DNA from: an uncultured Nitrososphaerales archaeon
Lineage (GTDB): Archaea > Thermoproteota > Nitrososphaeria > Nitrososphaerales > Nitrososphaeraceae
Assembly (NCBI GenBank): GCA_963841565.1
Contig: CAWJCY010000008.1
Coordinates: forward strand, 1-64,000
Direction: 5' to 3'
DNA length: 64,000 bases
Made by a program: the position numbers and the translations under genes. Below, one piece after another: positions 14,780-53,299 of this stretch. Numbering within the stretch: position 1 is the stretch's first letter; each line of letters starts with the position of its first letter. The notes beneath the pieces are model-generated. The model was given only the letters and a program-made list of their open reading frames with translations. It was not told the DNA's origin and made no database searches.

Positions 14780-15692
14780 TGAAGTGAACCGAAATTCATC
14801 AGGAAGAGTAATGCCCCACTAATAGGATCTCGGGTATACATGCTAAACAAAGAAACTATTCAAAAATTTATTTGCTATACGCCTAAGGGAGAAGATCTAT
14901 TAAAAAATTATGACATTGGCGATCGTAACAGAAGAACAAGTACCTTTTACAGTAAACATAGAAAAGCTTCTGCATTATCACGTAGGCGTATTTGCATTCA
15001 CAGGATCTGGGGAAGGGTAATCTTACTTTACTTGTATTAAGGAAATCAGTTAATTCACTTCCAGATATGAAATTTGTAATATTTGACGTATCTTCAGAAT
15101 ACGGCATTAATATTCTCGATCTACTTAAATCTATTCCAAGTCGAGTCATATTTACAGATGAACTAAGAGGAAAGGATATCACTGAAAAAGCTAAAGACTA
15201 TTTGAGGAGACATGTAATTCCGGAGACATTAGAAGATGTGAATGATACGTTTCTTGCGTCAATTGAGAAAACGATCAAACAGGATAAGATAAAGAAAATC
15301 TTTATACAGTCAGAATCAGAACAAGGACTTCAGGGGATAACTAGTTACGGTGGTCTGTTGGGAACACTAGGGGATCTCGCAGGTGAAAAATATGGCGCTC
15401 TGCTCAGAAAATCTTGATTCCGACCATTGCGGGAATGATAAGGAAGTTCATGGTTGACAATAATATTGAAGATGAATCAACAGCAATTGGAAAGGAGATA
15501 ATGCCTTTGATAGAGTTAGTAGAAAAGTTGTTAGCCTCAGCCAAGCTACGACAAGATGCGGCCTTAATATCTATATTCAATAATCTGAAACTCGTACTAG
15601 ATAATCCTGCTCAGGGAGATTTTGGTGACTATAATTCAACAAGACTAGTTAGAGAAATTATGGATGGTAGAACGTTCTACTATTTCAATTGA
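14780..15692 (+). pseudogene. HerA/DUF87-like ATPase remnant, multiple frameshifts, 3'-truncated
   Basis: Frame-joined HYHVGVFAFTGSG/KGNLT Walker A; VIFDVSSEYG; PLIGSRVY; ends at the repeat element. Confidence 0.7.
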
Positions 15693-15897
15693 ACGTTCTG
15701 AACGAACACCTATTTTGGGGCAATAAGGTGGGGGTTTTATGAAACCGTGTGTACAGTAGGCGTTCAATAAAACGTTCTGAATGTTTGAATGTCTTTGAGC
15801 GTGAAGTCTTATTGAACGATTTGTAAACCTGTTAACAGTTAACGGTGTCTGTTAACACTCGGAGTAGATGTTAACGAATCTGTAAACGGGCGTTTAC
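15686..15897 (+). repeat. TGAACG/GTWWAC composite non-coding element, copy A
   Basis: Multiple TGAACG/CGTTCA motifs, then GTWWAC at 15823, 15831, 15838, 15851, 15870, 15882 and 15892; collinear with the reverse complement of 53099-53299. Confidence 0.75.
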
Positions 15898-16256
15898 GGC
15901 CTATTCTCGAACTCTTCTATCAGATATTGATAAGTCTCATCATTGTATTGGTCTAGTTCATCCATAAGCATGAAGTTCGTATGATTAAACACATCACCGA
16001 AAGCTAGCAGTCTTCTACCTTTCTTACTATCTCTATCTCGTTGGTAATATTGTTCTTTAAATGACTTCTTTGATACAAGACCACGCCACATCTTATATTC
16101 TAATTCTGATAGTATGTATCCAGTGACTTTATGGTATTCTTCAAGATGTCTCTGTTTGTATGTGTGATGAACTACTTTACCGCATAGTTGACAGCCATGA
16201 AACTCTGCACCATAATAGTTAGCTGCTCGACCTTCTTTGTCATATTCTACTTCTTC
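15894..16256 (-). pseudogene. 5'-truncated C2H2 zinc-finger protein fragment
   Basis: Open frame upstream of track ORF 15894-16091 reads CQLCGKVVHHTYKQRHLEEYH; no start codon before the motif. Confidence 0.55.
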
Positions 16257-16830
16257 TTAACACGGTACTTCCGCTTATGCTTGAGGTCCTAACTATTAGA
16301 TCTTCAATTTCTTTTCTTGTCACCATTTTCTTTCTATTACTACTGATCTCCAAGAATATTTCGTTAATAATGGGAAATTGTAGTAATTGCCTACAGACAA
16401 AATTAGATCTAGTCTCGCCACTTAGCTTTACAAGTTTTTCTCCTTTATCCGTTAGCCTATATCTGTGGCCTTCTGTAGTCTCTACTAAGCCCAACAACTC
16501 AGCAGCTTGACGGTAATATGAGCTCTGTCGATTGACAAAACCTAACACAACTTTTATGCTCTCAGCGTTGTCATACCCTTCAAGAACACGAATAGAGAAT
16601 TCTATTATTTTATTCACATCATCAACTTGAGGTATCTCAACTTTCCTTAGGCTGTTATCTTCAGGAATCCCCTTGAAGTTATCAGCTGATATTGTCTTTG
16701 AAAATAAAATTCTATAATGTGCCCCACTTATGAGTTTGATGGATTCAAGCGTATCATGGGGACTAAATTCATACTCCCAAAAAGAGTATATTTTTTCTCC
16801 TGGTTCTAAACAGAAAAGAATAAGAGACAT
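16240..16830 (-). pseudogene. Fragment of restriction-endonuclease-associated protein (DUF6997/DUF7226-like)
   Basis: YSFWEYEF, EIPQ.D, RQSSYY..AAELLGL, LT.KG and ST..RR motifs; truncated at both ends. Confidence 0.6.
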
Positions 16831-17095
16831 GATGTATGGATACGAATACGAAAGAAAGGTTTTATTCCCAATATGGGAACGCGAACATTTAGAATCCAAG
16901 AACGCTAGCATTTACAAAGAGACAAGAGAACGATTTAAGGAAATAGGTTTAGAACTGCTTAAGGATCCTGTAGAGACAGAGGATAGAATACGAAATCACA
17001 TTATAAAAAATCCTGATAACTTCTATCCTAAACTATCACCGGATTATGAGTTTATCAAGTCCACACGAATAAGTAAATGTTACAAGTTGATGTGA
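16829..17095 (+). pseudogene. Unidentified gene fragment
   Basis: Protein-like charged stretch MMYGYEYERKVLFPIWERE... abutting the previous fragment head-to-head. Confidence 0.3.
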
Positions 17096-17186
17096 TATCG
17101 CTGCATTGGGGAGATAATGCTGCATTGTGTCTTTCTATTGCTGCGCACATAAAGTTTTTAATGTTTGCATTAATGTATTTTGAATA

Positions 17187-17832
17187 ATGTCCGATAGGCA
17201 AGACGGTTCGAAAGATAAACAATATTCGAGAATTTATGAAACTTGCAGGAGCGGGAACGTTGTTTCTTGGGCTGGGTGCTTTTGGTATATCGAACCTTTC
17301 TAAGAATATTAGAGAAGTGTCAGCAACAGCGGAAGCAGCACCGTCTAGTAATAACACTAACACTACGCGTAGTGACATGGGTATTCAGGGTTCCATGATT
17401 GCTCACATCGTCCGGTTCACCCTCAAGCCGAACACCCCCAAGGATCAAGTCGATCGCGCGTTTGAACAATTGCGCAAACAGGGTCGAGAGATCAAGGCAG
17501 TCCAGTTATTCGTTGTCGGGCGAGACTTCGGAGGAGAGTTCGATTATGGTGCCATGTATATAATGAAGGACCTCGAGGGCTACCGGGAATACATGATGTC
17601 TCCAATCCATCGTAAGAGCGACGAGATCGGATTGCCCGTCGTAGATAAGTTTATCTCGATGGATATTACCGATGACAAGGATCCGGCCATCGGAGATAAG
17701 ATTACGGAAATTCACCGCAACAGATTTGCGCACGATCCGGCCCTCGCTAAACTCGTCGAAAACCTTGGCTATGCTGGAGAAGTAAGAAATATAATGAATC
17801 AATTAAAAGCTGTAGGAGTCTCTATTCCATGA
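17187..17832 (+). CDS. Dabb (stress-responsive A/B barrel) protein with damaged Tat-like leader
   Basis: MIAHIVRFTLKP...FVVGRDFGG...Y..Y...P.H; leader MSDRQ...YSR/EFMKLAGAG frameshifted at ~17230. Confidence 0.75.
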
Positions 17833-17920
17833 TTTCCCCTGCTCGTATTCCCTAAAAGAACCCCTTCAATCATTTCAGATATTGTATTATAATCCTAATT
17901 TACATACATAGGCTATTTCC

Positions 17921-18592
17921 ATGATCATAAAGGAAATTAAAAATTTAACTCATGCTGAATTTGAAGAACTTCGTAACATATATGTTTCAACTTTCCCATT
18001 GGAAAATGCCAAACAGCTTGATACATATATCAATCATATCCATGATATGCTCAGAAATGATAATAGATATCATCTATATGCCGCTCTAGAAAAGAGATCT
18101 ATGATAGGTATCTCTTTGTTATATATTTTCGAAAATTTAAAAATGGCGTTACTTGACTATATGGCAGTTACTCCAAATTTTCAGCGGCGTGGTATAGGCA
18201 GAAAGCTATTTGAATTCACAAGTAATGAGTTTAATCGCTGTATTTCAGATAACATGGGAATATTGTTAGAAGTACCGAAAGAAAACGTATCTGATCCAAA
18301 TGAATGGTTAAAGAGGAAGAAAAGAATTCAGTACCTTAATCTTGGAGTGAAAGTATTGAAAGGTGTTAATTATTTACTTCCAATACAGGTAGACGGAGAT
18401 GTAGAAGAGATGCATCTAATGATCAAACTTTCAAAGAATGTAACTTCGATATCAAGAAAGAGTATAACTCATTTCATTAATTCTGTATATACAGATGTTT
18501 ATGACTATAGAAAGACTGATTTGCTTCGAAGGACTATCACTAACTTGCCCGATGTCATTGACATCCAGGAACTGAAAGTACGGGATTTATAA
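17921..18592 (+). CDS. GNAT N-acetyltransferase
   Basis: LDYMAV.P.FQRRGIG acetyl-CoA-binding motif. Confidence 0.85.
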   Translation: MIIKEIKNLTHAEFEELRNIYVSTFPLENAKQLDTYINHIHDMLRNDNRYHLYAALEKRSMIGISLLYIFENLKMALLDYMAVTPNFQRRGIGRKLFEFTSNEFNRCISDNMGILLEVPKENVSDPNEWLKRKKRIQYLNLGVKVLKGVNYLLPIQVDGDVEEMHLMIKLSKNVTSISRKSITHFINSVYTDVYDYRKTDLLRRTITNLPDVIDIQELKVRDL

Positions 18593-19211
18593 AAACAACA
18601 TTTGCTAGTCTTTGGTCAGTTTTCATATGTATACGTTGTCCGTAACCAAGTGCTTACACGAAATTGGCTACAAGGTAGATTTTGCTATATGTATGAAGCA
18701 TATTGGGATCTTGGAAATATATCTAACAATAAACTTTTGTTAAAAGCGTTTCCTTAATTTTATCGAGTGGTATACATCCTTGAATTTCCATAATAAGACT
18801 ACCGACCGATATCTGCAGGGCAGACGACGTAATTGAGGCATAACAACACTATTACAGTCTTTGTTTAAAGCGCCACCTCAAAAGTGACTACGTAACAAGA
18901 GTAAACGTATTAAAATATCGCTACCCGATATTCAGTCAAACTGCTATTTCATTGACAAGTAATACGGTGTATCATACAATATTCTATTTGAATGATACGG
19001 TCATTAACTAGGTGGATACTTCGCCATTAGATTCTTGTTCAGACTGAAGTTATTGAAAAACAGACTAAACTTAGATGCAATATTATAAAATCGAATTTGT
19101 TCCGAGATAATCTATACGAGTTACGGGACTGCCAAATCTTGCTCCTTTTCTTATCTCTATTGCTAGAATTCTAATCTCATCTGAAACCGCTCTAGTTTAA
19201 AATAATAAATA

Positions 19212-19490
19212 ATGCTTAGGACGTATATACTAAAAGTGAATGATATGTCTGAAGGGATAGCAAGAGACCGTGACATAGAATTAGAAAACATCATCGGAAA
19301 CTTGATGATCGCTGAGTATCAAGTCGATAAACTTCAATCTAGATTGAGTGAGAGGGTAGGGGGTTTAGGATCAGGGAGCAACAAGAAATCGTCTTCATTT
19401 GTGTTTAAGAAAAATGATAAATGGTATAGGGTCACCCTATCTGTTGAGGAGATGACCAACATCAGTATCACTGATGATGAAATGGCATAA
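19212..19490 (+). CDS. Hypothetical protein (start probably ~19245)
   Basis: Protein-like ORF; AT-rich TATA-like upstream region. Confidence 0.55.
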   Translation: MLRTYILKVNDMSEGIARDRDIELENIIGNLMIAEYQVDKLQSRLSERVGGLGSGSNKKSSSFVFKKNDKWYRVTLSVEEMTNISITDDEMA

Positions 19491-19609
19491 ATTAATAATT
19501 TCACATATACGCCAATTCGTAGAGGACATGATGATGTAAATTAGTAAATCATTTTACCGTAACACATTTAAAATAGTTAAATAACTTAACTAGTTCGTGT
19601 CGCTGTTTC

Positions 19610-20335
19610 CTAGACTAATATTCTAGTCCCTATTTTGGTATCGGATTCAATAACTTTGATAATGTTGGTGACGCTGGCTCGTAATATCACCGTAGGGATT
19701 CTTGAACGTTCTATGATCTTTAAAGCGACCATATCCATCAGATCATACTTTCCTGCCATTGAGCTATTCTTACCTAATACCTCTATGCATTTATCAACGG
19801 TGACCCTTTTAAACACCTTTGCGTGGCGGTTGATATTTGGATCAGAATCGTAAATGCCATTGACATCTGTCGCGTTCACAAATATCTGAGCTTTAACCTT
19901 TTCAGCGACCAGTGCAGAAGTTGCATTAGTACTCTGACCCGGATGCAATCCTCCTAAAATCACCGGTTCTCCTGTCTCAGCTGCAATTGAGACTTCTTCG
20001 AGATTTGTGGGTACCTTTGGGTATACACAGCTACGTATTGAATGGAGCAGCAACTTGGCGTTAAGTCTTGAAACTTCTATGCCCAATAAATCCAGACTTG
20101 CTTCGTCACTTCCAAGTTCTCGTGCAAGATCAATATAATGCCGAGCAATATTCCCTCCTCCTGCAATAACTACCGGTTGTACATGCTTATTCAATTCAGT
20201 TATCATCATTCCATATTCCTTAATCGATTTCGACCTTGCGCTACTACTAAAAATGCTACCACTAAGTTTAATGACCACCTTTTTTTTCCTGGACAGTTTA
20301 CTCATTGTACCTCTGACTCTTTGTTGATCCTTCAA
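19610..20335 (-). CDS. pyrH: UMP kinase
   Basis: VIKLSGS, GGGNIAR, GGLHPGQSTNA and TDVNGIYD.DP motifs; overlaps the upstream gene by 4 nt. Confidence 0.95.
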   Translation of the reverse strand: MKDQQRVRGTMSKLSRKKKVVIKLSGSIFSSSARSKSIKEYGMMITELNKHVQPVVIAGGGNIARHYIDLARELGSDEASLDLLGIEVSRLNAKLLLHSIRSCVYPKVPTNLEEVSIAAETGEPVILGGLHPGQSTNATSALVAEKVKAQIFVNATDVNGIYDSDPNINRHAKVFKRVTVDKCIEVLGKNSSMAGKYDLMDMVALKIIERSRIPTVILRASVTNIIKVIESDTKIGTRILV

Positions 20336-21567
20336 CTCGGGTCTCCGAGCACCTTATCGATAATAGAAGTCACTGCATTTCTACTCTCAGCAGTTGTGTA
20401 TATCCTCAACATATCTAGAAATCCTGTGATTGAACTGATGACAGGAATTTCTGAGATAGGTGTATCGTATGCCCATTCCTTGTCTACTAGAAGAACGGAA
20501 TTAATTTCTTCTTTTGAGGGAGTAAGTGGCATTGAAGGCGCTCTGGATGCGTCCACGAAAACAGTATTCTCATGAACTCCTGCAACATCGCATATACGCA
20601 GTCTTAACTCTTCAAGTGTTGAGATGCTCATCTTGTTGTACAACCTGTCACGCTTATGTAAAAATTTTTCATAGACACATTTTAGTAACTTTCTAGCTCG
20701 GTAGTCCCTGGCTAACTTTGCTACATTTTCATCCTTATCTATTGAACAAATTTGTTCAAGAGTAACCTCATCGGTTAGGTTAAGGAATTTATCAAGTGAA
20801 ATCTTTGTGATATGTAAGTAATTATCTGCTTGTGCTAACGAATGGAGTAACATTACTTCAGCTGATCTAACTGTCTTGTGGAAATAGACTGCTTTGAACA
20901 TTTCGTATCTGGATATGAGCATTGATTCAAACGAATATAGTGCAGATTTATTAATCGCCAAATGTCCTGTTGCCACCACTTCAAAAGAGGCTATTAGCCT
21001 ATGGTAGTCAATCTTACCGTATTCTGCCCCAGTAAATAGACTATCCCTGGGCAAGTAATCCATGATATCTGCGGATAGACCGCCTGCAATTATTTCATTT
21101 AAGAAACTTGATTTAGACTCACCAAATGATAACCTACATATGTCTGAAGGATTAAACCCGTGACCTCTTAAAACGTCTCCAATTTCACTTTCGAGTATCA
21201 CTTTTTTTCCCATATCCTCATGTGTCATACTGCACTTACTCTCCAATACTTCTTCAAAGAGATGAGAAAACGGTCCATGACCAACATCGTGTAGTAGAGC
21301 AGCTAACCTCAATTGTTGTATACTGTCTTCGTTATCGATGAAACCCTTCCTCAGAAGGCTCTCTCCAGCGTACCCCGCAACGTGCATTGTCCCTAACGAA
21401 TGTTCAAATCGGGAGTGCTGTGCACTGGGATAGACAAGGTGAGCTCCGGCAAGCTGTCTAATCCTTCGCAACCTCTGGAATACAGAAGTATCTATAAGAT
21501 CTCGCTCGACTGCACTGAAGCTGATATATCTATGAACTGGGTCAGTTATTTCGCCAATAAACTTCAT
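20332..21567 (-). CDS. HD-domain phosphohydrolase (dNTP triphosphohydrolase/SAMHD1-like)
   Basis: DPVH, FQRLRRIRQL, HSRFEHSLG, LHDVGHGPFSH, D.MDYL.RD and VYFHKTVR motifs. Confidence 0.92.
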   Translation of the reverse strand: MKFIGEITDPVHRYISFSAVERDLIDTSVFQRLRRIRQLAGAHLVYPSAQHSRFEHSLGTMHVAGYAGESLLRKGFIDNEDSIQQLRLAALLHDVGHGPFSHLFEEVLESKCSMTHEDMGKKVILESEIGDVLRGHGFNPSDICRLSFGESKSSFLNEIIAGGLSADIMDYLPRDSLFTGAEYGKIDYHRLIASFEVVATGHLAINKSALYSFESMLISRYEMFKAVYFHKTVRSAEVMLLHSLAQADNYLHITKISLDKFLNLTDEVTLEQICSIDKDENVAKLARDYRARKLLKCVYEKFLHKRDRLYNKMSISTLEELRLRICDVAGVHENTVFVDASRAPSMPLTPSKEEINSVLLVDKEWAYDTPISEIPVISSITGFLDMLRIYTTAESRNAVTSIIDKVLGDPS

Positions 21568-21681
21568 GGAGCGTACCTCCTAATCGGGTATTGCTCTTTA
21601 ATAGATTATCTGCAAGATCTGTCGTCTCGCGATAACAGCTAAAATGATAATTTACTATTTTGTTTGGGTTCTTTTTGAGAC

Positions 21682-22143
21682 TTACACTTTAGTCATTCTT
21701 GTAACTTCTTTCAGCAGATCGTAGTTGTCAATCGGCTTTTTGAGAATGGTGCATCCGGGGAATTTACGCAAGGCAAAATCAAATACCATCTCTCCCGCAG
21801 TTATAAAACATACTTTGACCTTGCTATCGATTTTTTGAAGCTTGTTGCACAATACCAGCCCATTCATCTTTGGCATCCTGATATCAAGCAGGAGAAGATC
21901 GTACAAACCTGGTTTGAAATTATCTAATGCTACGAATGGATCATTAAAAACATCTACTGAAAATTGATCCTCGAGGACAATCTTCAAAGTAACGTTCACA
22001 TCGTCTTCATCGTCTACAACCATTATTCTCTTTCTCATCTGATGGTCGCTGGTCATTGCTGTTACTTGATATCGCACGCCACCGCTGAAACCTTCCTCAT
22101 TACGTTGCCGCTGTGAGTACGAAAACGATGAAGTCGATGTCAT
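21682..22143 (-). CDS. Stand-alone response regulator receiver protein
   Basis: IMVVDDE, LLDIRMPKMNG, CFITA and KKP motifs. Confidence 0.88.
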   Translation of the reverse strand: MTSTSSFSYSQRQRNEEGFSGGVRYQVTAMTSDHQMRKRIMVVDDEDDVNVTLKIVLEDQFSVDVFNDPFVALDNFKPGLYDLLLLDIRMPKMNGLVLCNKLQKIDSKVKVCFITAGEMVFDFALRKFPGCTILKKPIDNYDLLKEVTRMTKV

Positions 22144-22383
22144 TTCGGGGGTAGGTACCAGTTAATAATCATTGTAATAGATAAGTATTACCTGCAAATT
22201 GGAATTGAACAGCAGTACTGCCTGACAATTTTACCATATTGGTTTAAAGCAGAAGCATTTACAGGTTCTTTTAATTTCGCGAATTGGCTTAATTAATCGT
22301 CTAAAGTCTTTTCATAATAAGGTAGCTTATGACATTCTTGAGCATCACCAACTCAATAAGGGACCGCTAGTCGTTAGAGCATA

Positions 22384-22641
22384 TTACCAATGCGGATTAT
22401 AGCGCTCAAGATATTTTTGGCCCTCTTTAGTTATGACAAGCTCATTCACGAAATTTCGTTCTACTAGCCGAATATCGCTCAGAACTGCTAACCATGTCTT
22501 AACAAGCTGTCCATCTCCGATGAATCTTTCTACTATCTGATCTTCATTTTTGCCCTCTGATATACACCTCAGTATGTACAACGCAGATTGAAGCTCAGAG
22601 AGTCTATTGACATATGAATTTCTTTTTATCGTATTCACCAC
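22384..22641 (-). CDS. Small winged-helix-like protein
   Basis: C-terminal IT.EG..YL wing motif. Confidence 0.6.
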   Translation of the reverse strand: MVNTIKRNSYVNRLSELQSALYILRCISEGKNEDQIVERFIGDGQLVKTWLAVLSDIRLVERNFVNELVITKEGQKYLERYNPHW

Positions 22642-23610: not shown

Positions 23611-23741
23611 AATGGCAGACTTTATGATATTGCATGTATTGATAACTTACCCCTCTGATATTCAAAAATGCCGATTTGTTGATGAGCAGCTATGGATTCT
23701 AAATGCATGATATTATAATTAGACATAAGATACAATCCAGA

Positions 23742-24254: not shown

Positions 24255-24446
24255 ATGCCTCTTTTAAATTACTGGTTATTCCCACCCGCCTCACAATATG
24301 CAGAACGAATTATAATATACTACTCCAATTTGTTAGCCGTGGTGTTTATCTTATTCGCCAGGCCGCCTTATAGACGGTTTCATAGTATATTTCATGCTCT
24401 CTCGTTTGCTCTTAATTTCAAACGAGCAACATCTGATAGCTGCCCC

Positions 24447-24581: not shown

Positions 24582-24845
24582 CAAAATAATGTATTCACTA
24601 TTTGGATTTAACTCTATGTAGACACGATAGGATATTGTACAAATCATGGGCAACTGATGCCTAATCTATCAGATGGACACAGGCAGGCATTAGTTAAACA
24701 TTCTTATTGTTTGTAGCACAACATCATTTAGGAAAATAAATAGAGAGCCGATAAGTGATATTCCTCCTCGTTACGTGTACGAGAGCACCGGATAATGCAC
24801 AACAGATCGATTGTCAGTCTTCCTAATGACGAATTAAATAAACAC

Positions 24846-24867
24846 ATTGTAATTTTTTAATTACAAT
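24846..24867. promoter_or_regulatory. Palindromic operator upstream of TFB paralogue 1
   Basis: ATTGTAATT-N4-AATTACAAT perfect inverted repeat. Confidence 0.4.
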
Positions 24868-24909: not shown

Positions 24910-25920
24910 ATGGAACTTCCCAGAAGGAGAGTGAAATCATTGTCTTATCAATATCATCTCCAAGAGGATTATCAACAAAAAAATAAGCTAGCAGATAAAG
25001 GCATTAAAGAAAATTACTCGTCAAATGTACTTTCGCACTCATGTGACTCCATCTGGATGATCTTCGACGGATCGACTGGCGAAACTATTTGTACTAAATG
25101 TGGAGCTGTTATAACTGAAAGGCCGACGACTTTGGAGACTGGTCCAAGTTCTACCGAGTCATTTAGCAATTCTGTATCGCTTGCCTTTCCTGATAAAGGA
25201 CTTTCAACAGTTATCACGAGTGCAAATATCGACGCTTCCGGTTCAACATTAAATCACGACCAGATTCAAAATGTAAACAAGATTAGATATTTAGATAAGG
25301 TTTCAAATAATAATAGAACTCAAATTAGAAACCTTAAGAATGCCTTTGTTACTATGGCCGCTATCAGAGATAAATTGACACTCACAGATCCTGTCATGGA
25401 AAGAGCTGCTTATTATTATCGCAAAACACTCCACAATAAACTCATAAAAGGGAGATCTATTCGGGAAATGGTGGTTGCTTCCATTTACGCTTCCTGTAAG
25501 GAGATGGAAGTACCTAGAACTTTGTGCGAAATATGCGACGCAGCTAATGCAGATCCTATATTTGCAGGTAAATGTTACAGAACCATGGCAAGAGAGCTAA
25601 GAATAAGTCCATTAATTGTTGATTCTGCGAGATACATCTCAAAAGTTGCCGACAGCGCCTGTGTTAGCCAGAAAACATACAGAAGGGCCGTAGAAATGCT
25701 AGATATTGTAAAGAAGCATTCAATATCTTACGGAAAGGATCCAAAGGCGCTTGCAACTGCAGTTCTTTATGCCGCATGCATAAAAGAAAATGAACTCAAA
25801 GTTAGTCAAGCAAAGATAGCAGCCGCAGGGAGCATCAGTGTGGTTACATTGAGGAAAAGGTTTTCAGATATCTTAAGAATAATACCAAGGGATAATGATA
25901 ATAATACTAATTATGCATAA
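24910..25920 (+). CDS. tfb: Transcription initiation factor IIB paralogue
   Basis: Zn ribbon (HSC...GETICTKCG), DKGLST, two cyclin repeats (KGRS..., GKDP..., VTLRKR). Confidence 0.92.
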   Translation: MELPRRRVKSLSYQYHLQEDYQQKNKLADKGIKENYSSNVLSHSCDSIWMIFDGSTGETICTKCGAVITERPTTLETGPSSTESFSNSVSLAFPDKGLSTVITSANIDASGSTLNHDQIQNVNKIRYLDKVSNNNRTQIRNLKNAFVTMAAIRDKLTLTDPVMERAAYYYRKTLHNKLIKGRSIREMVVASIYASCKEMEVPRTLCEICDAANADPIFAGKCYRTMARELRISPLIVDSARYISKVADSACVSQKTYRRAVEMLDIVKKHSISYGKDPKALATAVLYAACIKENELKVSQAKIAAAGSISVVTLRKRFSDILRIIPRDNDNNTNYA

Positions 25921-33153: not shown

Positions 33154-34161
33154 CTATTTTGTTCTGCTTCGAGTTTTCGTATAATTTACCTCTGGGCAAA
33201 TTTTTAGAATGTCAGCAAGTCTCTTTCTTAGTGTCACAATACTTATGTTTCCAGCTGCCGCTATTTTTGATTGGCTAATGCCTTCCTCTTTCTTTTTTAA
33301 ACAAGAAGCGTACAACACGGCTGCAGCCACTGCCTTAGGATCTTTGCCATGGCAAATAGGATTCTTCTTTGCTACGCTCAACATGTTTACTGCTTCCCTA
33401 TAAGTCTGTTGACTAATCTGTGCATTGGTTGCTATTTTGGATATGTACGATGTAGCATCGACTATGGGAGGGATAATCCTCAATTTCCTGGACATTATTC
33501 TGTAGCATCTACCAGAGAAAATGGGTTCCGCATTTGCCGCATAAGATATCTCTTGCAACCTTCTTGGAACACTCATTTCTTTACATGCGGCATAGATACT
33601 TGCTACAACCATTTCCTTTATTGCCCTTCCCTTGATCAAATTGCTATCAAATGCTTTTCGGTAATAATATGCAGCTCTTTCTATTATGGGATTGGTCAGC
33701 CCCAACTTGTCGCTAACTGCCGCCATTATTGCAAATGCGTTCTTAAAATTTCTCAGATGATTCTTGTTATTACCCCAGATTTTGTCCAAGTATCTAATTT
33801 TGTTACTTGTTGTAATCTGTTCTTGATTTAGGACGGTACCATTAGCATCGGTATTTGAGTACGTTATAATTGTTGACAGACCCTTGTCAGGGAATACAAG
33901 TGATGATGGCATGCCCGATCTATTTTTTGCATTTATATCACTTACTGGCATTTCCTGCTTGTCCAAAACAACCGTACCACAGGTTGTGCAGATTATTTCA
34001 CCGGTTAATCCGTCGAAAATTGTAGCGTCACTCTTGCATGACGGGCATCTGCGAGAACTACGAATAACCTCAAGAGCATTTTGTTGTTCTCTAGCCTGAA
34101 CAGTGTTAGCAGGAGATTCATATAGAATATATTTCCCCTGTTGTATAGATTGCTTATTCAT
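33154..34161 (-). CDS. tfb: Transcription initiation factor IIB paralogue
   Basis: CPSC...GEIICTTCG, FPDKGLST and cyclin repeats; closely similar to 24910-25920. Confidence 0.93.
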   Translation of the reverse strand: MNKQSIQQGKYILYESPANTVQAREQQNALEVIRSSRRCPSCKSDATIFDGLTGEIICTTCGTVVLDKQEMPVSDINAKNRSGMPSSLVFPDKGLSTIITYSNTDANGTVLNQEQITTSNKIRYLDKIWGNNKNHLRNFKNAFAIMAAVSDKLGLTNPIIERAAYYYRKAFDSNLIKGRAIKEMVVASIYAACKEMSVPRRLQEISYAANAEPIFSGRCYRIMSRKLRIIPPIVDATSYISKIATNAQISQQTYREAVNMLSVAKKNPICHGKDPKAVAAAVLYASCLKKKEEGISQSKIAAAGNISIVTLRKRLADILKICPEVNYTKTRSRTK

Positions 34162-34298
34162 TGCATCAATTTAGCTCATCTTTTATAAAAAACGTTGGTG
34201 TTTTGTGTAATTTAATGAATCAAATACGTTAAATAACTCTGGTGTAATTAAACAAGTACAATGTATTCCCCGGGAATGGATACATAGGAGACACTTTC

Positions 34299-35152: not shown

Positions 35153-35452
35153 CTAGTCGAGTTTTTCTTTTACTTTCTCTTTCTGGTACTCCGTTTCTGT
35201 ATCTTTGTCGGGATCCTTTGCTTTGTTAAATACAGCTTTTGCTCCTGCTTTTAGTTTGTCTTTGACATCTTTGGCACCTTCTTTTACTTCGTGACCGACA
35301 TCTTTGGCACCTTCTTTTACTTCATGACCAGCATCTTTGGCACCTTCTTTTACTTCATGACCAGCATCTTCGACATCATCTTTTGCATCATCATTAGTAT
35401 CCACTTCATATTTTGTTTCTTTCTTTACCTCAAATTCGCCCATTTTCTTCAT
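35153..35452 (-). CDS. LEA-like hydrophilin with 11-mer repeats
   Basis: (DAGHEVKEGAK)x3; highly charged; no Cys or Trp. Confidence 0.8.
   Translation of the reverse strand: MKKMGEFEVKKETKYEVDTNDDAKDDVEDAGHEVKEGAKDAGHEVKEGAKDVGHEVKEGAKDVKDKLKAGAKAVFNKAKDPDKDTETEYQKEKVKEKLD
35264..35370. repeat. 33-bp tandem repeat x3.2
   Basis: Unit (GA/AG)CATCTTTGGCACCTTCTTTTACTTC(G/A)TGACC. Confidence 0.95.
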
Positions 35453-38337: not shown

Positions 38338-38700
38338 CTACTTTTCTCCGCCTTCATTAAAGAACTCTTGTACGCCTTTAAGGGCTTCTCCTGTTTTGTT
38401 TCCCACTGCTTGTAAACCTTCACCAGTTTTATTTCCGACTGTTTGTAATGCTTCTCCTGTTTGGTTTCCAGCAGTCTGCATAGCTTCACCTGTTTGGTTT
38501 CCAGCAGTCTGCATAGCTTCACCTGTTTGGTTTCCAGCAGTCTGCATAGCTTCACCTGTTTGGTTTCCAGCAGTCTGGTTTCCAGCAGTCTGGTTTCCAG
38601 CAGTCTGATTCGATCCTTGAGCGAACAACAGATCTGGAACTGACACAGCAGAAAAGAGCCCCGCGAACAATACCAACACTCCTATTGTACTATATTTCAT
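38338..38700 (-). CDS. Secreted repeat protein (11-mer QTAGNQTGEAM)
   Basis: Signal peptide MKYSTIG...AQ; repeated NQT/NKT sequons. Confidence 0.8.
   Translation of the reverse strand: MKYSTIGVLVLFAGLFSAVSVPDLLFAQGSNQTAGNQTAGNQTAGNQTGEAMQTAGNQTGEAMQTAGNQTGEAMQTAGNQTGEALQTVGNKTGEGLQAVGNKTGEALKGVQEFFNEGGEK
38385..38607. repeat. 33-bp and 15-bp tandem repeats
   Basis: CCTGTTTGGTTTCCAGCAGTCTGCATAGCTTCA x3 plus degenerate copies; TGGTTTCCAGCAGTC x3. Confidence 0.95.
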
Positions 38701-39125
38701 TTTGCTTGTGACCATATTACAATCAATAATGTAACTTACGCTATAACCTTTTCTTTTTGTCCGAACAGCATATTTTATTCTTCTATGTCCGATCACCTTA
38801 CTTTTTCCGCTGCCATAAGACGAGAAGTACTCGGATTCTCAACCTATAGGACACATCTTTGGTTCTTTCGTCCAGGCTGCAATGGGGTGCCGCAACCATG
38901 AACCACCCTCTCCCAACGTTAAAAGTGAATTCATGATCCGAATATTTGTGGAATCCGCATTCCGAGCCCAGCAACGCAATAATATCCCCAAAAAAGGCGC
39001 CCATTTGCTCTCAGCAAAATGAAATGCTTCCGGTGAATTTTTTTACTTCGTGGTGAGTGATCCACAAAAATTGTGACGGGAAGTGTCAATCGATTCACGA
39101 TGTTTGATTTCATGATTGCAGAAAA

Positions 39126-40900: not shown

Positions 40901-40918
40901 CGTTAATAGCTCGATCAG

Positions 40919-45324: not shown

Positions 45325-46149
45325 TTGAAAAATATAAAATTTTTTGGGTTATTGTGTCTGAGCATAATTCTACTTCTGGGTTTTGTGTCGCCCACATATT
45401 CCGGCTCCGCTACCCCAGAGAACAAGACATTAATGCAACCCCAAGGAGTACAGGATATGGCAACAAATGCTACGAATATCGTTTTAGTCCATGGTTTATG
45501 GGCTGATGGATCTTCATGGAGTAAAGTAATTCCTACCTTGGAAAAAGCAGGACACAAAGTTATTGCTGTTCAACTTCCTCTCCATTCTCTGGCAGATGAT
45601 GTCGCTACTGTAAAGCGTGCAATTGACCTAGTTGGCGGACCAACAATACTTGTGGGACACTCATTCGGTGGATTCATAATCACCAATGCTGGTTATAATA
45701 ATCAAAACGTAACAGGGCTTGTCTACGTTTCAGCCTTTGCTCCTGATGAGGGTGAATCTACCGCGAATTACGTTGATCTTGCAACATTACCTCCAGGATT
45801 ATTGGTTCCCGATAGCGGAGGATTTTTGTACCTAAACCCAAAGATGTTCCACGAAGCGTTTATTCAGGATGCAAATGCGACTGAAGCTGAAACTTTGGCC
45901 GTTGTACAAAAGCCAGCTCATCAATCACTTGCTACTGAACCCTCTGGCCCTCCTGCTTGGAAGCAACTTCCTACATGGTTTGAGGTGTCTGAGGGCGACC
46001 ACATTATCCCTCCTGATGCACAACGTAATTTTGCAAAACGAATGAATGCTACTACTATATCACTTAACTCTAGCCATGCGTCACTTGTATCACACCCAGA
46101 TGAGATCGCCGAATTAATCCTAAATGCAACAAAAGGAGTGACAAAGTAG
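45325..46149 (+). CDS. Secreted alpha/beta hydrolase
   Basis: VLVHG.WADGSSW, GHSFGG, D..IPP and SSHAS motifs. Confidence 0.88.
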
Positions 46150-46150
46150 T

Positions 46151-46972
46151 ATGAGCACAATCATTACCAAGGACGGGACTGAAATCTACTATAAGGACTG
46201 GGGTAAAGGTCCTGTCGTAACTTTTTCGCACGGCTGGCCCCTTAGCGCAGACGCTTGGGACGGCCAAATGCTGTTCCTTGTGCAAAATGGCTTTCGCGTA
46301 GTCGCTCACGACCGTCGCGGTCATGGCCGGTCAAGTCAGGCTTCTTCGCGGAACGACATGGATGGCTATGCCGACGATCTTGCAGCAGTGATCGAAGCGC
46401 TTGATCTCAACGATGCCGCGCTTGTGGGGCATTCAACTGGCGGAGGTGAAGTTGCCCGCTATATCGGTCGCAATGGAACGAAGAGAGTTGCCAAGGCTGT
46501 CCTGATAGCGGCTGTGCCCCCGATCATGGTTAAGTCCGCTACCAATCCGGAGGGTCTACCGATAAAAGTGTTTGATGACATGCGTTCGAGTCTTATCAAG
46601 GATCGCTCGCAATTCTACAAGGATCTAGCAATCGCGTTCTATGGTGCCAACAGGGAAGGTGCCAAGGTCTCCAAAGGAATCCTGGATCAGTTCTGGCTTT
46701 GGAGCATGCAAGCCGGCCTCAAGAATGCCTATGAAAGCATCAAGGCTTTCTCCGAGACTGATTTCACCGAAGATCTCAAGAAGTTCGATGTCCCAACCTT
46801 GGTTATGCATGGTGAGGACGACCAGATCGTTCCCGTCAAAGACGCAGCTAAGAAATCAGCCAGGCTCATCAAAGGCTCGAAGGAAATCTACTATCCTGGT
46901 GCGCCTCATGGCCTCACGGCCACACTTCAGGATCAGGTCAACACCGACCTGTTGTCCTTCCTGAAGTCCTAG
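46151..46972 (+). CDS. cpo: Non-heme chloroperoxidase/perhydrolase (alpha/beta hydrolase)
   Basis: [40 protein letters not shown] and APHG motifs; GC-richer than the flanks. Confidence 0.9.
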
Positions 46973-47304
46973 ATGTCTCGTTCCTTCGTATATGGCTTTA
47001 GCGCTTATATGGAAAAGCTATAATGACACTAGTTCTAGAATATCAAAAACTTAAGACACGCGGCTTAATTAGACATAAATAGTATGATTTAGTGATTCTA
47101 TTATAATAGTACAGTATTACAGCCATGGGACAATCGAAGTAATGAGACAGCCTAGCCGCCATACGCCTAAACATCTTCCACCTTTAATGAGTGAACTATC
47201 ACATCGAGAAGGCATTAGTAATGACAGTTTATGAGGATACTATCGATCCTGTTTTAAAAATACAAGCAATTAAAAAGGATTAGAGCTAAACTCAGTATAG
47301 AAAC

Positions 47305-47778
47305 CTAACTTCCATTATTTTTATGAGTCTCAGGAATTACTTCCTTATTGACAAATGCCTGGAAGGAAGGATCAAACCAATTCTCTGACTGTGTTAGCTT
47401 CCAATGTTCACCTAAAGTTCCATATCTAAAGCAATTTCTCATCCAGTATAACCACCTTGTCCAATCATCATCCTTGAGCACATTTCTTTGATGCATCGCA
47501 TAAGCATGAGAAGAAATAAAAAAGATATAGTACGCAAATGCTAATTCTTCTGATGGCTTTTCAAGTTTATACATGACTTTTTGCATCGATGGTTTTTCAA
47601 TTATGATTTCTGCCATCTTGCGAACCTTTTCATCCAAGTCATTAAGAACCTTTGTTTCGATATCCAATTTGAACCCCTGTGCTTGCTTCCTCGAGAAATA
47701 CAGAACTATAAGCATTGTACCAATTATTCCCAGTGCTCCTCCCATCCCGATAATCTCGACTATACCAATTTCAACCAT
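47305..47778 (-). CDS. Membrane-anchored hypothetical protein
   Basis: N-terminal TM helix plus helical domain. Confidence 0.65.
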   Translation of the reverse strand: MVEIGIVEIIGMGGALGIIGTMLIVLYFSRKQAQGFKLDIETKVLNDLDEKVRKMAEIIIEKPSMQKVMYKLEKPSEELAFAYYIFFISSHAYAMHQRNVLKDDDWTRWLYWMRNCFRYGTLGEHWKLTQSENWFDPSFQAFVNKEVIPETHKNNGS

Positions 47779-47840
47779 AAATTGAATGCTATATTCGCTT
47801 GTTCTTAAGTGTATGTTCTCGCACTAGAACTAACAATCTA

Positions 47841-48190
47841 GAATTATATCCCTCAGATTGTGGCGGCAAAGATGAAACACCTACAGGTCCTGAAATAATA
47901 AGTATGATTAGTAACGCCTCTGATTCTACCCAACAGAGCATATAGAAACTCATACCTTTCCTGTTTCCGAATGAATAGTTTCACTACAAATGCAGATTAC
48001 CTAAACTACTTTCTTATTCCTAAAGAATCAGTGTCTACTCAAATAATACGACAGCAAATACAATTAGTAGGAAATTAGTCAGGTAGTTGCAATACTATCT
48101 CAAATTTTAGCCAGCCTACTTTGATCATAGTTGGAACAGATGATGCTCCGCTACAAGACTCGTTAATGCTAGCAACGGCAATAACTATTG
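47841..48190 (+). pseudogene. Alpha/beta hydrolase remnant
   Basis: LYPSDCGGK...LFP...PKESVS.QII.QQ...QPTLIIVGTDD with several stops and a frameshift. Confidence 0.55.
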
Positions 48191-48907
48191 TTCGCCGCAG
48201 CACCAATTTTTCAGGAATTTGCTTGCTGACTTTGTATCCTTGAAAGTAAATTTTTTCGGATCTGAAGACATTACTTCTTTGAAATCATTGTGGATATCAA
48301 GAGGCGTGTTATTCAGAGTGATAATGCATTCCAAGCCAGCCTTATTGGCAGCTTCCACTCCTAATGGTGAATTCTCGACTACAATTACCTGTGAAGTAGG
48401 TAGATTCATTTTATTTAAAGCAATCAAAAAGGGTGCTGGATTTGGTTTCCCTTTTTCTATATCATCGCCGGTAATTATGAAATCAAAATACGTGGTCCCA
48501 ATATTCTTGTCTAAAATCGCCTCGACCTCTTCTCTGGCAGCGCCACTAACAACAGCTTTGATACAAGACTTCCCGCAATTTGATGTTAGATCTTCAAGCA
48601 GTTGCTTCGCTCCATCTATCCCTTTAGCATTTTGAATCTGTTTGAAAATCTGTTCCTTTCTCGATCCGATCTGCTTTGCCAGATCATCATCATCATCTAC
48701 ATCTATCTTTTTATTAATGTTCTCTCTTTTGAAGATCTCCTTAACTAAATCTGAACTAGGCATTCCTTCAAGTAGAAAAATATTCTTCTTGTCTATTTCA
48801 TGATTTGTTATTTCCTTTATTGCTCTGCTCATAGCCTCTGCATGAAAAGGCATTGCGTCGACAAGGACGCCGTCCATATCAAAGATAATACCTTTTTTAG
48901 TTGTCAT
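48185..48907 (-). CDS. HAD-superfamily phosphatase (beta-PGM/CbbY-like)
   Basis: FDMDGVLVD, VVSG, KP.P and VENSPLG motifs. Confidence 0.9.
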   Translation of the reverse strand: MTTKKGIIFDMDGVLVDAMPFHAEAMSRAIKEITNHEIDKKNIFLLEGMPSSDLVKEIFKRENINKKIDVDDDDDLAKQIGSRKEQIFKQIQNAKGIDGAKQLLEDLTSNCGKSCIKAVVSGAAREEVEAILDKNIGTTYFDFIITGDDIEKGKPNPAPFLIALNKMNLPTSQVIVVENSPLGVEAANKAGLECIITLNNTPLDIHNDFKEVMSSDPKKFTFKDTKSASKFLKNWCCGEQ

Positions 48908-48932
48908 AAAACAAATTATTCATTAGGGAATT

Positions 48933-50013
48933 TTATGGATTTATAACTCCTCGACCAACAACTTTTCCCTCCTTCAGCATGGACAGTGCTTCGGTAGCCT
49001 GCTCAAGGTTGAATTTGTCGGATACAAGGGGTTTTATTACGCCACGTCTAGTCAATGATACCAGTTCGGCAAGCTGAGCGATGTTCCCTGTATAGGATCC
49101 AATCAGCTTGTATGCTCTTGTGGGCATACTTAAGAGGTTTAATTTTATCGAGCCTCCATACAATCCAACTAGCACTAATCGTGCACGCTTTCTCAAAATT
49201 TGTATACCGTTCGCTGTGCTTTTAGAGGAGTTTACAAAATCAATCACTGCATCCACGCCCAATTTTTGGGTCACTTCCATCACGGCTGTTACTGCATTCT
49301 CCTTCATTGCATTCACTACGTAGTCTGCGCCATTCTCTTTAGCTGTCCTTAACTTGTTGTCATCCAAATCTAAGGCGATCACCGTTGAACCCGTAATTGC
49401 CTTCGCGAGTTGGATTGCCATTAAGCCTAATCCTCCAGCACCAATAATAACAGCAGTGTCATATGGTCTCAGACTTGCATTGTTTATTGCACCATATGCA
49501 GTCAATGAAGAACATGTTAACGTGCATGCTGTATTTGCATCAAATGAACCTGTCTGAATATCATTTGTAATATCTAAAAGGTATCTGTAAGCTTGGCACC
49601 AAGACATACTCAGAATATCCACCATCATTATAAACACCTAAAGATCGCGGTCGGTCACATAAATTCTCGTTGCCCTCTCTGCATGCCGGACACATTCCTT
49701 CTCCCAACCAAGGGTAAACAAGAACATTGCTATCTTTTTTGAATAGATTAAGTGATGACACTTCCTCACCAACCTCTTCCACCACCCCTGCAATTTCATG
49801 CCCGGGGATTAGCGGATAGCGTACGCCTCGATCAGTTGCTTTGAGGAACTCTCCATCTGGACCTTCATAACCTCCTTCCCAGAGATGAATATCGCTATGA
49901 CAAACTCCACAGGCTTCTACCCTGACAAGAACCTGGGAACCGATAGGTTTAGGGGTTTCTTTAGTTACAATTTCTAAAGGAGATTTTGGCTTGGTAATAC
50001 TAGCAGACTTCAT
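48933..50013 (-). pseudogene. Zn-dependent alcohol dehydrogenase, 1-nt frameshift at ~49590
   Basis: CGVCHSD, GHE, C..C..G.ENLC and GAGGLG motifs; removing one base gives VPSYRYLLD. Confidence 0.88.
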
Positions 50014-50557
50014 AGAGGGGTTAAGAAGAGATTGAATATAAAATGATTGTTATGGGATTGCGTATGAGCAAATCATATTAGTATACTAAAAAATTGAAAA
50101 TTCTTGACATCTTTTCCTATTCGATATTATTGTGGAATACATGTGCTTGTAGTCAAATCACAGTGGTATTGCTACCTTAATAATACTCTCTCAAGTTAAA
50201 ATCTCGTACCCCAGATTGGTTATACACCTGCAGCATTGCTCCTTCGTTCGCTAGTCGTAGACTTTTTAGACATGCGGAGAAGAGGCATATAGCTTGGAAT
50301 TCTTCGGGCGGTTGGTTCAGTTTGTGATACTTACAACATATGCTGCATATAGTCTTCGATCAATGAAGTCAATAATTCCTGCTGACAACAATTCAACTCT
50401 CTCAAATGTGGTGACTTGGAATCTACCAGGTAAACCATATTGGAACAAATATGTTTATTCAGCCCCCAAGCCTCTTTTTAGATGAGATCGGTCAAATATT
50501 GGCAGAAAATTGCATGGAATTCAAATCTAGTTCAACAAATAAATAAAAGACCACAAT

Positions 50558-51037
50558 TCACTTAACATCGTGGCGATATTTATCGCTATTCTTTACCATA
50601 CCAACTATACGTGTCCACGTATCCCGAAAAGAAGTACAGCCTGATCCGGCCAAATGACTACATGTATCATTATTAAGCAATGTACCATCTTCATCTTCGG
50701 TGAGAACGCGTCCTTCGCTATAATTAGGGAAGCTATTTCCTAATCTAGTCTTAATAAGGCCACGAATTATTTCCTTAAAGACCTCAATCAAGCCGGATCT
50801 AGCACCAAAAGCCCCGTTTTTATTGATCAACCAAAACATTTGAGTGGGGTCGTAGTCGGCTGGAAAGATAGATTTCTTTACTTTCATTGCCTCAGGCGAA
50901 TAATAATGACCTGCCAAACGTATCCAACCTCCTGATATCCTTCTAGCCCAAAAAGCGAATTGCCCACATGACGAGCATCTGTCATCGTATATGAGCAACG
51001 GCCTTGAAAAAGGAGAGGACACAGGTATTGACAACAT
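50558..51037 (-). CDS. DCC1-like thiol-disulfide oxidoreductase (DUF393-like)
   Basis: LIYDDRCSSC (DxxCxxC) motif. Confidence 0.7.
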   Translation of the reverse strand: MLSIPVSSPFSRPLLIYDDRCSSCGQFAFWARRISGGWIRLAGHYYSPEAMKVKKSIFPADYDPTQMFWLINKNGAFGARSGLIEVFKEIIRGLIKTRLGNSFPNYSEGRVLTEDEDGTLLNNDTCSHLAGSGCTSFRDTWTRIVGMVKNSDKYRHDVK

Positions 51038-51217
51038 ATGTTGCTACTCTCTTCACAAATATAAGACTTCTCGATAGACTTTCCATAGATTGCTAAAGCA
51101 GTTTCTGTCATGGCAAAAAAAATATTACAAACTGTGAATAACTTATACTAGCCAGATAATATGCATTCATAAATATGAATAAATACGTAGACCTGTCCAT
51201 AGCTAATAGAAACTGTC

Positions 51218-51343
51218 GTGCTAAAATGTATCCGATGTGGACATGAAATGAAGGACATACAACCTTGTCATTTGAAATGTTTCAACTGTGGGAGCGAGAT
51301 CGACTGTTCTGATATAAACTATTTTTTGATTGAAGATGATTGA
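51218..51343 (+). CDS. CPxCG-type zinc-finger microprotein (41 aa; not in ORF track)
   Basis: VLKCIRCGHEM...CHLKCFNCGSEIDCSD; start codon uncertain. Confidence 0.7.
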   Translation: MLKCIRCGHEMKDIQPCHLKCFNCGSEIDCSDINYFLIEDD

Positions 51344-53098
51344 ATTTGTTAAAGAAAGAATGATCATTATAGTTCCACTTCTTTATTTTTCTAACTTAAA
51401 GGATCTCCATTCCTTGTTTCATTAGTCAGTTCATATTATTTTGGTAAAATGTTTAATAGATGCTGTAGTTAGGACCATTGGATATCTATCTTTATTTTTC
51501 TATTCTTTCATTTTCAAATGGTATCGTTGTCAACCATGATAGATCGATGGGTGAATAATTAGTCAGCATTTGTGTACATAAAAAATGCAGCAGGTTATGC
51601 TTTAATATCGTTACTACATTTAAGATGATTTCTTTCAGTTCTCTCAAAAATATCTAGGTTACATTTTGCAAGCATCTGTGCAATTCAATCCATTCAACCC
51701 GGCCTATATTCTCTAAAGTCTTGATCTGTTGAAGGATTTGAAGCAATTTGTAAGAGGATTTATTGCAATTCTGAATAACCATGCTAATTGCAATTTGTGG
51801 TCTAACTATTTGTAAAGAACCGATCATGTTATTCTTGCCATTTTGCCAAATATTATTTTTAATGACAGAATGAGGACTGTCCTGTTTTATTACAATCAAT
51901 AAAACGATATTCACCAGCCAAATATGCTTGTATCTACATCATACACTGCTCAGGATAGATTTTTTCCAAAGGTTTCGTACTTTTCTGAACGGTAGAAAGA
52001 GGTGTTTTACCCTTTTACCAATCTTCCGACTGCTTAATTCTGGATTTTCTATCAACTCTAACAATATTTTTGCTTAGTGTCAATTATGACCAGCCTGATA
52101 ACATTCGCAAAATTAATGTACCCCTAAAACGTGTTGATACACATTCTTTAAACGGGTAGTATGCTGAATGATAAAGTATGTAAGAGCATTGCATGATTTT
52201 GACTACTGTACCAATAATTAGAACGAGGCGTGGGCGTCTGCGCTAGTGTTCATACATTGGATCGCTCATACCATTGTAACTAGTGAACCAAAGATTATCA
52301 TGTATTCGGAGGGTACATTGTTTACTGAACAGCATATGTGTGGGCATTTTAGCTATCCATTGGTCTGGAATGAGAGGCTTCTAGTGCAATATGAGAATAT
52401 TACTTATAACATGAGGCTCAAATGCATGTTTAAAGGTAAATGGTTATGCCGTGAATAATAGACCTAAGTATGACCAAAATGTTAATAAATTCGATGAATC
52501 AGCACCGCTTCCAATTTTAATAAATACTTATATTTGATATTATATAATTGTTTTATTGGTAATTCAGTCCGGCTCCCCCCAGAGCCATTGAAAGGCCAAT
52601 GGTAGGGAAAAATATTTCCCTGCCATTTTGTCAGTTGATCACCCATTGTCTACTTCCCTGTATATGATAAAGTTCCATCCAGGCTGATCTTGGCTTTTTG
52701 AAATTTATTGCTGGGGATAATTAGGAACACCCAAGGTAGTCTAATTATCTTATAATGTATATTTTATACGCTACAATACATGGATCATAGATTAATGTTG
52801 AATGGCGATGATAATGTTATCTTCATCAGTAAGTTTAATTGAATCATTATGATGTTGTCTTTGGGTTGAGCACCAAATTGCAAGATAAGAGTAAGCTTTT
52901 GATCAATATGCTACTTGTGGCTTGGGTGATTAGTTCAATCGTTGCTGTGTATTATCTTCGCATCGATTTCTTACGAAAGCATTTTGTTGAATGCATTTCT
53001 ATTCATTCCCACTAAAAAGTCATGCTCGTTGATGTGCTCCTATGTCTTCTAGTTCTAAAGGATTAGCTAAAAATGGCCACTCTTTGCTAGAGTGTCAT

Positions 53099-53299
53099 GT
53101 ATACGAGAAAGTTTACAGATTTCTGAGTGTTTACAAATTTGTATACAGCCATTGTATACAGACCTGCTTGTAAACAGCCGTTCAGTAGAAATTCACGCTC
53201 AACATACTGAACGACCCAAATTGAACAGCATCGTTCAAAACACTTTTCAATAGTTTCCCTAGGGGGATTCGTTCAAGGCGTTCAATTAGCGTTCAATTA
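53099..53299 (-). repeat. TGAACG/GTWWAC composite non-coding element, copy B (inverted relative to copy A)
   Basis: GTWWAC at 53099, 53111, 53129, 53141, 53154 and 53170; several CGTTCA motifs up to 53295; TTCACGCTCAA at 53192-53202. Confidence 0.75.

Follow-up and report, generated by a model that had tools for sequence, protein, structure and literature searches.

Miniature inverted-repeat transposable elements (MITEs) and the Correia, ERIC and BOX units are noncoding repeats of about 0.3 kb that occur in multiple copies at unrelated sites, fall into subfamilies and sometimes disrupt genes. Short sites are also arrayed at the multi-site ends of certain transposons (the TnsB sites of Tn7, the L1-L3 and R1-R3 sites of Mu, and the ends of IS21), in plasmid origins, where iterons are about 20 bp long, and in lambda-type attP, where arm-type and core-type sites occupy about 240 bp. 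In ammonia-oxidizing archaea, mobile DNA is known mainly from islands that bear an integrase or a casposase. Here we describe two related elements, A and B, in a 64,000-nucleotide stretch of DNA from an uncultured Nitrososphaerales archaeon (assembly GCA_963841565.1, contig CAWJCY010000008.1, positions 1 to 64,000 of the forward strand; hereafter, the window). The two are best explained as diverged members, from two subfamilies, of a noncoding dispersed Nitrososphaerales repeat of ~230 to 345 bp, which is present in at least five copies, in five unrelated contexts and at least three genomes.

A preliminary description of the window had proposed that A and B are homologous, with a bipartite structure and collinear blocks, and we confirmed that this resemblance is real. 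A (positions 15668-15897, plus strand) and B (53033-53375, minus strand) are each other's best match within the window. A and the reverse complement of B present their features in the same order: TGAACG half-sites are followed by a 24-bp TTGAGCGTGAA-N7-TGAACG core, which is followed by a run of GTWWAC palindromes. The collinear stretches comprise AATTGAACG-N3-TGAACGAA, the core itself (TTGAGCGTGAA..TGAACG; 20/24 positions matching), TGTWAACACTCRGA and AATCTGTAAAC. A gapped collinear alignment of A and B scored 50.5, which is 7.6 standard deviations (SD) above the mean of 21.6 (SD, 3.8) obtained for 1,260 real segments of the window, and the runner-up among unrelated segments reached 36.5. When B was used as the query, windows over A again ranked first (42.5 versus 36.0).

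Under strict scoring, the best single block between A and B reached 28, within the maximum of 30 observed among 500 dinucleotide shuffles (18.3 ± 2.5), indicating that one block alone is not beyond chance. A BLASTN comparison gave an E value of 0.19, with a best segment of 63% identity over 95 bp, while a MAFFT alignment yielded a mean column identity of 71%; in a repeat search of the window, the A-B pair was only 25th among inverted repeats. The case for A and B is carried by the gapped collinear score together with the clustering of motifs, strict local alignment and BLASTN being weak when taken alone.

This clustering is pronounced. TGAACG or its complement, CGTTCA, occurs four times in A, six times in B and 27 times window-wide, such that A and B hold 10/27 of these sites, along with 7 of the 13 TTGAACG, 6 of the 12 TGTWWACA and 4 of the 9 GTTAAC sites. 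Counted per 130 bp, with Poisson probabilities corrected for 492 windows of that length, TGAACG is enriched in B (six sites, 2e-8) and A (four sites, 2e-4), and GTWWAC in A (seven sites, 8e-8) and B (six sites, 4e-6); elsewhere in the window, no more than three sites of either motif are found per 130 bp. A six-frame comparison of the sequences flanking A with those flanking B revealed no common coding relic (best E value of 0.004 over 26 residues, judged to be chance). We also observed that GTTAAC is rare outside A, with five sites where dinucleotide shuffles predict 14.1 ± 3.3 over the whole window, which makes the presence of four GTTAAC within 45 bp at A more striking; one reading of this scarcity is that the lineage has a restriction system of GTTAAC specificity.

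The repeat also occurs outside the window, as the preliminary description had anticipated. A scan of reference genomes with a 17-base core pattern returned at least 117 loci. With the pattern masked, three loci among the matches listed resembled A or B (L018, L048 and L080), all of them in Nitrososphaerales, while at least 114 of the scanned loci are chance matches that are alike at the searched pattern only. In L018, a contig of 2,362 bp, positions 1402-1747 are 88% identical to window positions 53375-53033 over 349 bp, and neither flank matches. L048 and L080, which lie on separate contigs of one metagenome-assembled genome (MAG), share 95% identity over 286 bp between unrelated flanks, implying a recent duplication of the unit alone. 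We then built a profile from the alignment of all five copies (A, B, L018, L048 and L080). Its full-length matches were exactly those five, with E values from 7e-70 (A) to 3e-89 (2.9e-88 for B), and the remaining scanned loci matched at the searched pattern only (E value of at least 0.003). Neither the window nor the 20-kb flanks of L048 and L080 yielded an additional copy with this profile. Recovery of full-length copies at these five loci only indicates a discrete dispersed repeat family.

Six-frame comparisons revealed no synteny among the five contexts, the sole genes common to the neighborhoods of L048 and L080 being distant bPH paralogs (31% identity). A possible synteny of B and L080 through nearby flavin mononucleotide reductase genes was rejected, as the proteins are unrelated (E value of 0.45), and a weak protein-level extension of the L048/L080 similarity beyond the left edge of the unit was judged to be alignment run-on. 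Searching proteins with a spurious frame that runs across B yielded no new copies, only this locus again in other assemblies (P0084, eight contigs). The presence of B and its left flank on eight contigs of other assemblies marks this locus as a stable resident there.

All five copies have the same layout, in which the order of parts is invariant: a TATA-like stretch, which precedes block I in every copy, and then blocks I, II and III. Block I consists of three direct TTGAACR repeats with start-to-start distances of 11-12 and 9 bp in B, L018, L048 and L080; in A, it consists of two repeats and a variant located 21 bp upstream, inside a 14-bp palindrome (GTAGAACGTTCTAC). Tandem direct repeats in helical phase, by which iterons are recognized, are present, with a repeat length of 7 bp. 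After a variable spacer of roughly 35-55 bp, block II contains TGAACG half-sites in both orientations and closes with the 24-bp core, which is invariant. Block III is made up of five to seven GTWWAC palindromes (four in L018), often extended to TGTWWACA and often arranged as adjacent pairs. The centers of these palindromes split by subfamily, with 14 GTTAAC and no GTATAC in A, L048 and L080 and, conversely, seven GTATAC and no GTTAAC in B and L018; the window carries one copy of each subfamily. Such complete segregation is what would be expected if the sites co-evolved with a cognate binding protein. Block III is followed by a tail of ~60 bp, which is shared more strongly by B and L018 and, at z = 4.2 (reached by 1/500 shuffles), by B and L048; A has no significant tail of this kind. 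The copies have no coding frame in common, and indels break all frames.

Consistent with the earlier suggestion that the motifs are kept better than the spacers, 7/171 motif positions differ within the two close pairs, compared to 48/463 other positions (one-sided Fisher P = 0.007), a test that is partly circular, since it compares the very sequences on which the motifs had been marked. The extents of the copies had to be revised: B is longer than had been claimed (~53033-53375, as judged from the match to L018), and A starts at ~15668. The features of the two copies are as follows.

15668-15897, plus strand: copy A, GTTAAC subfamily, cut off on both sides (profile E value of 7e-70; HerA homology ends at 15665)
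15668-15704, plus strand: block I of A, with the palindrome GTAGAACGTTCTAC and the direct repeats TTGAACG (15689) and CTGAACG (15698), 9 bp apart
15761-15818, plus strand: block II of A, with an inverted CGTTCAA, TTGAATG and the core TTGAGCGTGAA-N7-TGAACG at 15795-15818
15823-15897, plus strand: block III of A, with seven GTWWAC (four GTTAAC, two GTAAAC and one GTTTAC) 7-19 bp apart, at 15823, 15831, 15838, 15851, 15870, 15882 and 15892
53033-53375, minus strand: copy B, GTATAC subfamily, full extent (88% identity to L018; profile E value of 2.9e-88)
53270-53296, minus strand: block I of B, with three direct TTGAACG, start-to-start distances of 11 and 9 bp
53179-53238, minus strand: block II of B, with TTGAACG, two inverted copies and the core at 53179-53202
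53099-53175, minus strand: block III of B, with six GTWWAC (three GTATAC, two GTAAAC and one GTTTAC), at 53099, 53111, 53129, 53141, 53154 and 53170
53033-53098, minus strand: right tail of B, in common with L018 and, more weakly, with L048

In L048, the right flank additionally contains an inverted copy (9814-9830 and 9971-10004; 16 nucleotides at 88% and 10 nucleotides at 100%) of the sequence that separates the core from the first pair of palindromes; L080 has no such copy.

The copies are located at gene breakpoints or beside DNA with few open reading frames (ORFs). A is set in a patchwork of three gene fragments, and the genes at A converge on the unit; B borders an ORF-poor tract.

14741-15665, plus strand: HerA-like (DUF87) ATPase relic, frameshifted and cut at the left edge of A
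15894-16256, minus strand: orphan ORF with a C2H2-like Cys/His pattern, ending at the inner edge of A
16258-16821, minus strand: relic of a DUF6997/DUF6996/DUF7226-family gene, cut at both ends (residues ~164-350 of 386-amino-acid homologs)
51100-53032, no strand: tract adjoining B at its palindrome end, poor in ORFs and with only short broken frames

As first described, A begins where a HerA-like gene is cut. The relic corresponds to residues 137-447 of 620-amino-acid Nitrososphaeraceae homologs (72-93% identity by segment), its homology stops at 15665, three bases short of A, and the missing N- and C-terminal parts are nowhere in the window. The HerA homolog matches defense HerA models. The proposed zinc-finger gene fragment at the inner edge of A stands in part: an ORF with a Cys/His pattern does end there, but it is an orphan, lacking a start codon that would give 80 amino acids and having, among 1.84 billion representatives, a near-identical 65-amino-acid protein as its sole relative. 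The possibility that this ORF is the C terminus of the DUF7226 gene was rejected, as homologs end with DUF7226 and a different tail. A homolog of the adjacent relic from another assembly (P0086, matching 16258-16821) has an N terminus that, by eye, resembles the end of an adenine DNA methyltransferase, which hints that the DUF6997/DUF7226 family belongs to restriction-modification.

The location of B in an ORF-poor tract likewise agrees with the preliminary description, and L018 and L080 also adjoin ORF-poor DNA. The repeat-bearing end of L048 adjoins a truncated SF1 helicase, of which the C-terminal third is left and which matches Mokosh-type defense models. Two copies, A and L048, abut truncated genes for defense-type NTPases.

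Together, the ordered array of two site classes, the subfamily-specific palindromes, the dispersal to unrelated sites (with a recent duplication inside one genome) and the placement at gene breakpoints within decaying regions of defense type best fit a cis-acting region of a mobile-element family. We therefore tentatively favor a reading in which the units stem from an undescribed family of this kind, whose control or end region they may represent as nonautonomous copies or as relics. The copies would have moved to, or been left behind in, variable and decaying parts of the chromosome. The phased repeats could be coated by one protein, probably of a monomeric helix-turn-helix or winged-helix type, and the palindromes could be bound by a dimeric protein; the resulting complex might serve recombination or transposition, or else replication or partition, by means of proteins supplied in trans. 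A more specific version, which is doubtful, would make the repeat the recognition end or control region of an as yet undescribed mobile-DNA system of soil ammonia oxidizers. Such a system would dispense with terminal inverted repeats, assemble a multi-site nucleoprotein complex on phased TTGAACR repeats and specificity palindromes, and insert or recombine at islands of defense genes, with the palindrome types acting as specificity or incompatibility groups that coexist in one genome.

In being short (230-345 bp), noncoding and present in several copies at unrelated sites (two in the window and two in one MAG), the unit resembles MITEs and similar repeats, from which it differs in having no terminal inverted repeats and no known parent insertion sequence, in showing no convincing target-site duplication by eye, and in being built internally of two classes of repeated sites in fixed order rather than of a single hairpin. 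Like multi-site transposon ends, it is asymmetric, with phased copies of a short site at one extremity and more copies further in. However, the unit has no opposite end paired with it around a transposase, genes for a transposase or an AAA+ partner are missing from its vicinity, neither terminal TG...CA nor 5-bp duplications were observed, and the palindrome class has no counterpart in such ends. The likeness to lambda attP extends to its length of ~240 bp, three adjacent direct repeats on one side with opposite copies on the other, and the presence of accessory sites; unlike attP, the unit has no integrase nearby, its copies are whole and not of the attL or attR type, and no core in common with a host target was identified.

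Several results weigh against a mobile-element origin. Terminal inverted repeats were found in 0/5 copies. By eye, the edges of L048, L080, B and L018, which are known from pairwise comparison only, showed no convincing target-site direct repeat. No integrase, transposase or Rep gene was present among 64 + 17 ORFs (the 17 including 12 further window ORFs) and 33 ORFs of L048 and L080, a set that covers the 64-kb window and 10 kb around the L048 and L080 copies, and no tyrosine or serine recombinase family was found in the scanned ORFs of the window, the loci and L048/L080. No autonomous parent element appeared among the matches listed, the family being known from at least five copies. Searches of 50,697 phage records and 72,556 plasmid records (the latter with queries other than L048) gave only chance-level matches of 32-46 bp. 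In addition, the edges of the unit differ between the subfamilies, so that what appear to be sharp edges may be different truncations of a longer ancestor, not the limits of a mobile unit, and the apparent constraint on the motifs is subject to the circularity mentioned above. The preliminary description had cast the elements as ends, an origin or a recombination site, possibly flanking integrase, transposase or Rep genes; given the scanned ORFs of the window and of L048/L080 and the lack of terminal inverted repeats, these proposals found no support.

The nearest rival to a mobile-element control or end region is that the unit is a relic of the origin and partition module (iterons plus a centromere-like site) of integrated, decayed plasmids or viruses, the best-conserved module of a mosaic that never moved alone. 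We consider this possible, though on balance unlikely. The direct repeats, phased at ~10 bp and lying beside inverted copies, resemble iterons, and the arrays of short palindromes with subfamily-specific centers resemble partition or immunity sites. Moreover, the copies adjoin decayed, ORF-poor or defense-type DNA, and the differing edges of the common unit are also in line with this explanation. As in iteron plasmid origins with their partition sites, helically spaced direct repeats with nearby inverted copies are accompanied by a separate palindrome array, but the repeats are 7 bp long instead of ~20 bp and the units are dispersed and solo. No initiator or Rep gene adjoins any of the five copies, and none contains an AT-rich unwinding stretch, the highest AT content over 40 bp being 0.70-0.775 compared to a 99th percentile of 0.80 for the window. 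The 95% identical pair L048/L080 has no common neighbors other than the bPH paralogs (31% identity), and no plasmid or phage record matches the unit.

A chromosomal origin is a related comparison. According to PMC4010727, archaeal origins are defined by origin recognition box repeats around an AT-rich region beside cdc6 or whiP. The unit shares with such origins clustered, conserved repeats in both orientations in noncoding DNA, but it lacks cdc6/orc1, whiP and an AT-rich core, and several copies per genome lie in decayed regions. No cdc6/orc1 or whiP Pfam family was detected among the 64 + 17 ORFs or the 33 ORFs of L048 and L080. The element was not found in literature on Thaumarchaeota mobile elements, MITEs, repeats, origins and iterons, a search whose coverage excludes most subscription journals, and the passages of PMC6563490 consulted here, a paper that touches on iteron-type origins, contain nothing resembling the dispersed unit.

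It is also unlikely, in our estimation, that the repeat is a host module under host selection, either a cis-regulatory one (a promoter or operator in multiple copies) or a chromosome-organizing one (a loading site for nucleoid proteins). In all copies, the TATA-like stretch immediately precedes the phased repeats, and archaeal repressor sites are often found directly after a TATA-like stretch. The better conservation of motifs than of spacers and the occurrence of B with its flank on eight contigs of other assemblies, as a stable resident, are likewise in keeping with such a module. However, the five copies have no upstream or downstream gene in common, B and L018 face ORF-poor DNA, two copies cut genes, and the contexts are not syntenic. 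Were the unit a host regulatory module after all, it would join the few multi-site operators that are defined in the phylum.

We regard it as very unlikely that A and B bound a single 37.7-kb transposon-like element as its inverted ends, or that they serve as substrate for a programmed inversion of the interval. The two copies are indeed inverted, with their repeat blocks outermost, and at its outer edge A coincides with a gene breakpoint. However, the genes of the interval include an archaeal pyrH (TIGR02076, 215 bits versus a cutoff of 158), a thiamine pyrophosphate (TPP) enzyme gene, two TFB genes and others that are ordinary for a chromosome, whereas a mobility gene is absent. The position of pyrH between A and B argues that they are not the ends of a single element, in agreement with the preliminary description, which on these grounds had taken the copies to be probably independent relics or an inversion substrate. 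Furthermore, the remainder of HerA is neither beyond B nor elsewhere in the window, A and B are from different subfamilies (71% mean column identity; 63% over 95 bp by BLASTN), and neither of the related copies L048 and L080 is accompanied by a partner within 10 kb.

That the unit is a noncoding RNA gene transcribed from the TATA-like stretch is just as hard to credit, even with such a stretch at one edge and conservation that is discrete and block-wise. The consensus fold is very weak (RNAalifold, -9.48 kcal/mol over 317 columns), and Rfam gave no match at the gathering score in the window and none at an E value of ≤1 in L018. The conserved parts are repeated hexamers and DNA palindromes rather than paired stems. 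Chance resemblance or an assembly artifact, to which the BLASTN E value of 0.19 and a best single block whose score was reached by at least 1 of 500 shuffles might have pointed, is refuted for practical purposes by a gapped score 7.6 SD above that of 1,260 segments, by the reciprocal result and by independent copies in other assemblies.

As a small dispersed repeat rich in likely protein-binding sites, the unit would offer a new means of tracing genome plasticity in Nitrososphaerales and would also mark breakpoints in regions of defense genes. Its two defined motifs could be used as bait for the DNA-binding proteins that act on it, be they transposition, replication or regulatory factors.

The remainder of the window is ordinary thaumarchaeal chromosome, as indicated by two TFB genes, Nre, PolX, the TPP enzyme and archaeal pyrH. 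The TFB (TFIIB) paralogs are inverted ~9 kb apart and show similarity within the genes (25060-25110 and 33970-34020), as well as a common 25-nucleotide stretch, 88% complementary, located 45-80 bp upstream of their starts (24841-24865 and 34243-34267). A response-regulator gene (13959-14449) and a zinc alcohol dehydrogenase gene (48933-50013) are each broken into two frames that adjoin or overlap; together with the HerA relic, these split genes point to either many recent pseudogenes or assembly indel errors. Tandem 33-bp (11-codon) repeats are present at 35200-35397 and 38351-38610, within minus-strand ORFs (35153-35452 and 38338-38796) to which no function was assigned. Finally, GC content, ~0.38 in other parts of the window, rises to 0.50 at 46001-47000, where the second gene of a neighboring alpha/beta-hydrolase pair lies; recent acquisition is one possible explanation.

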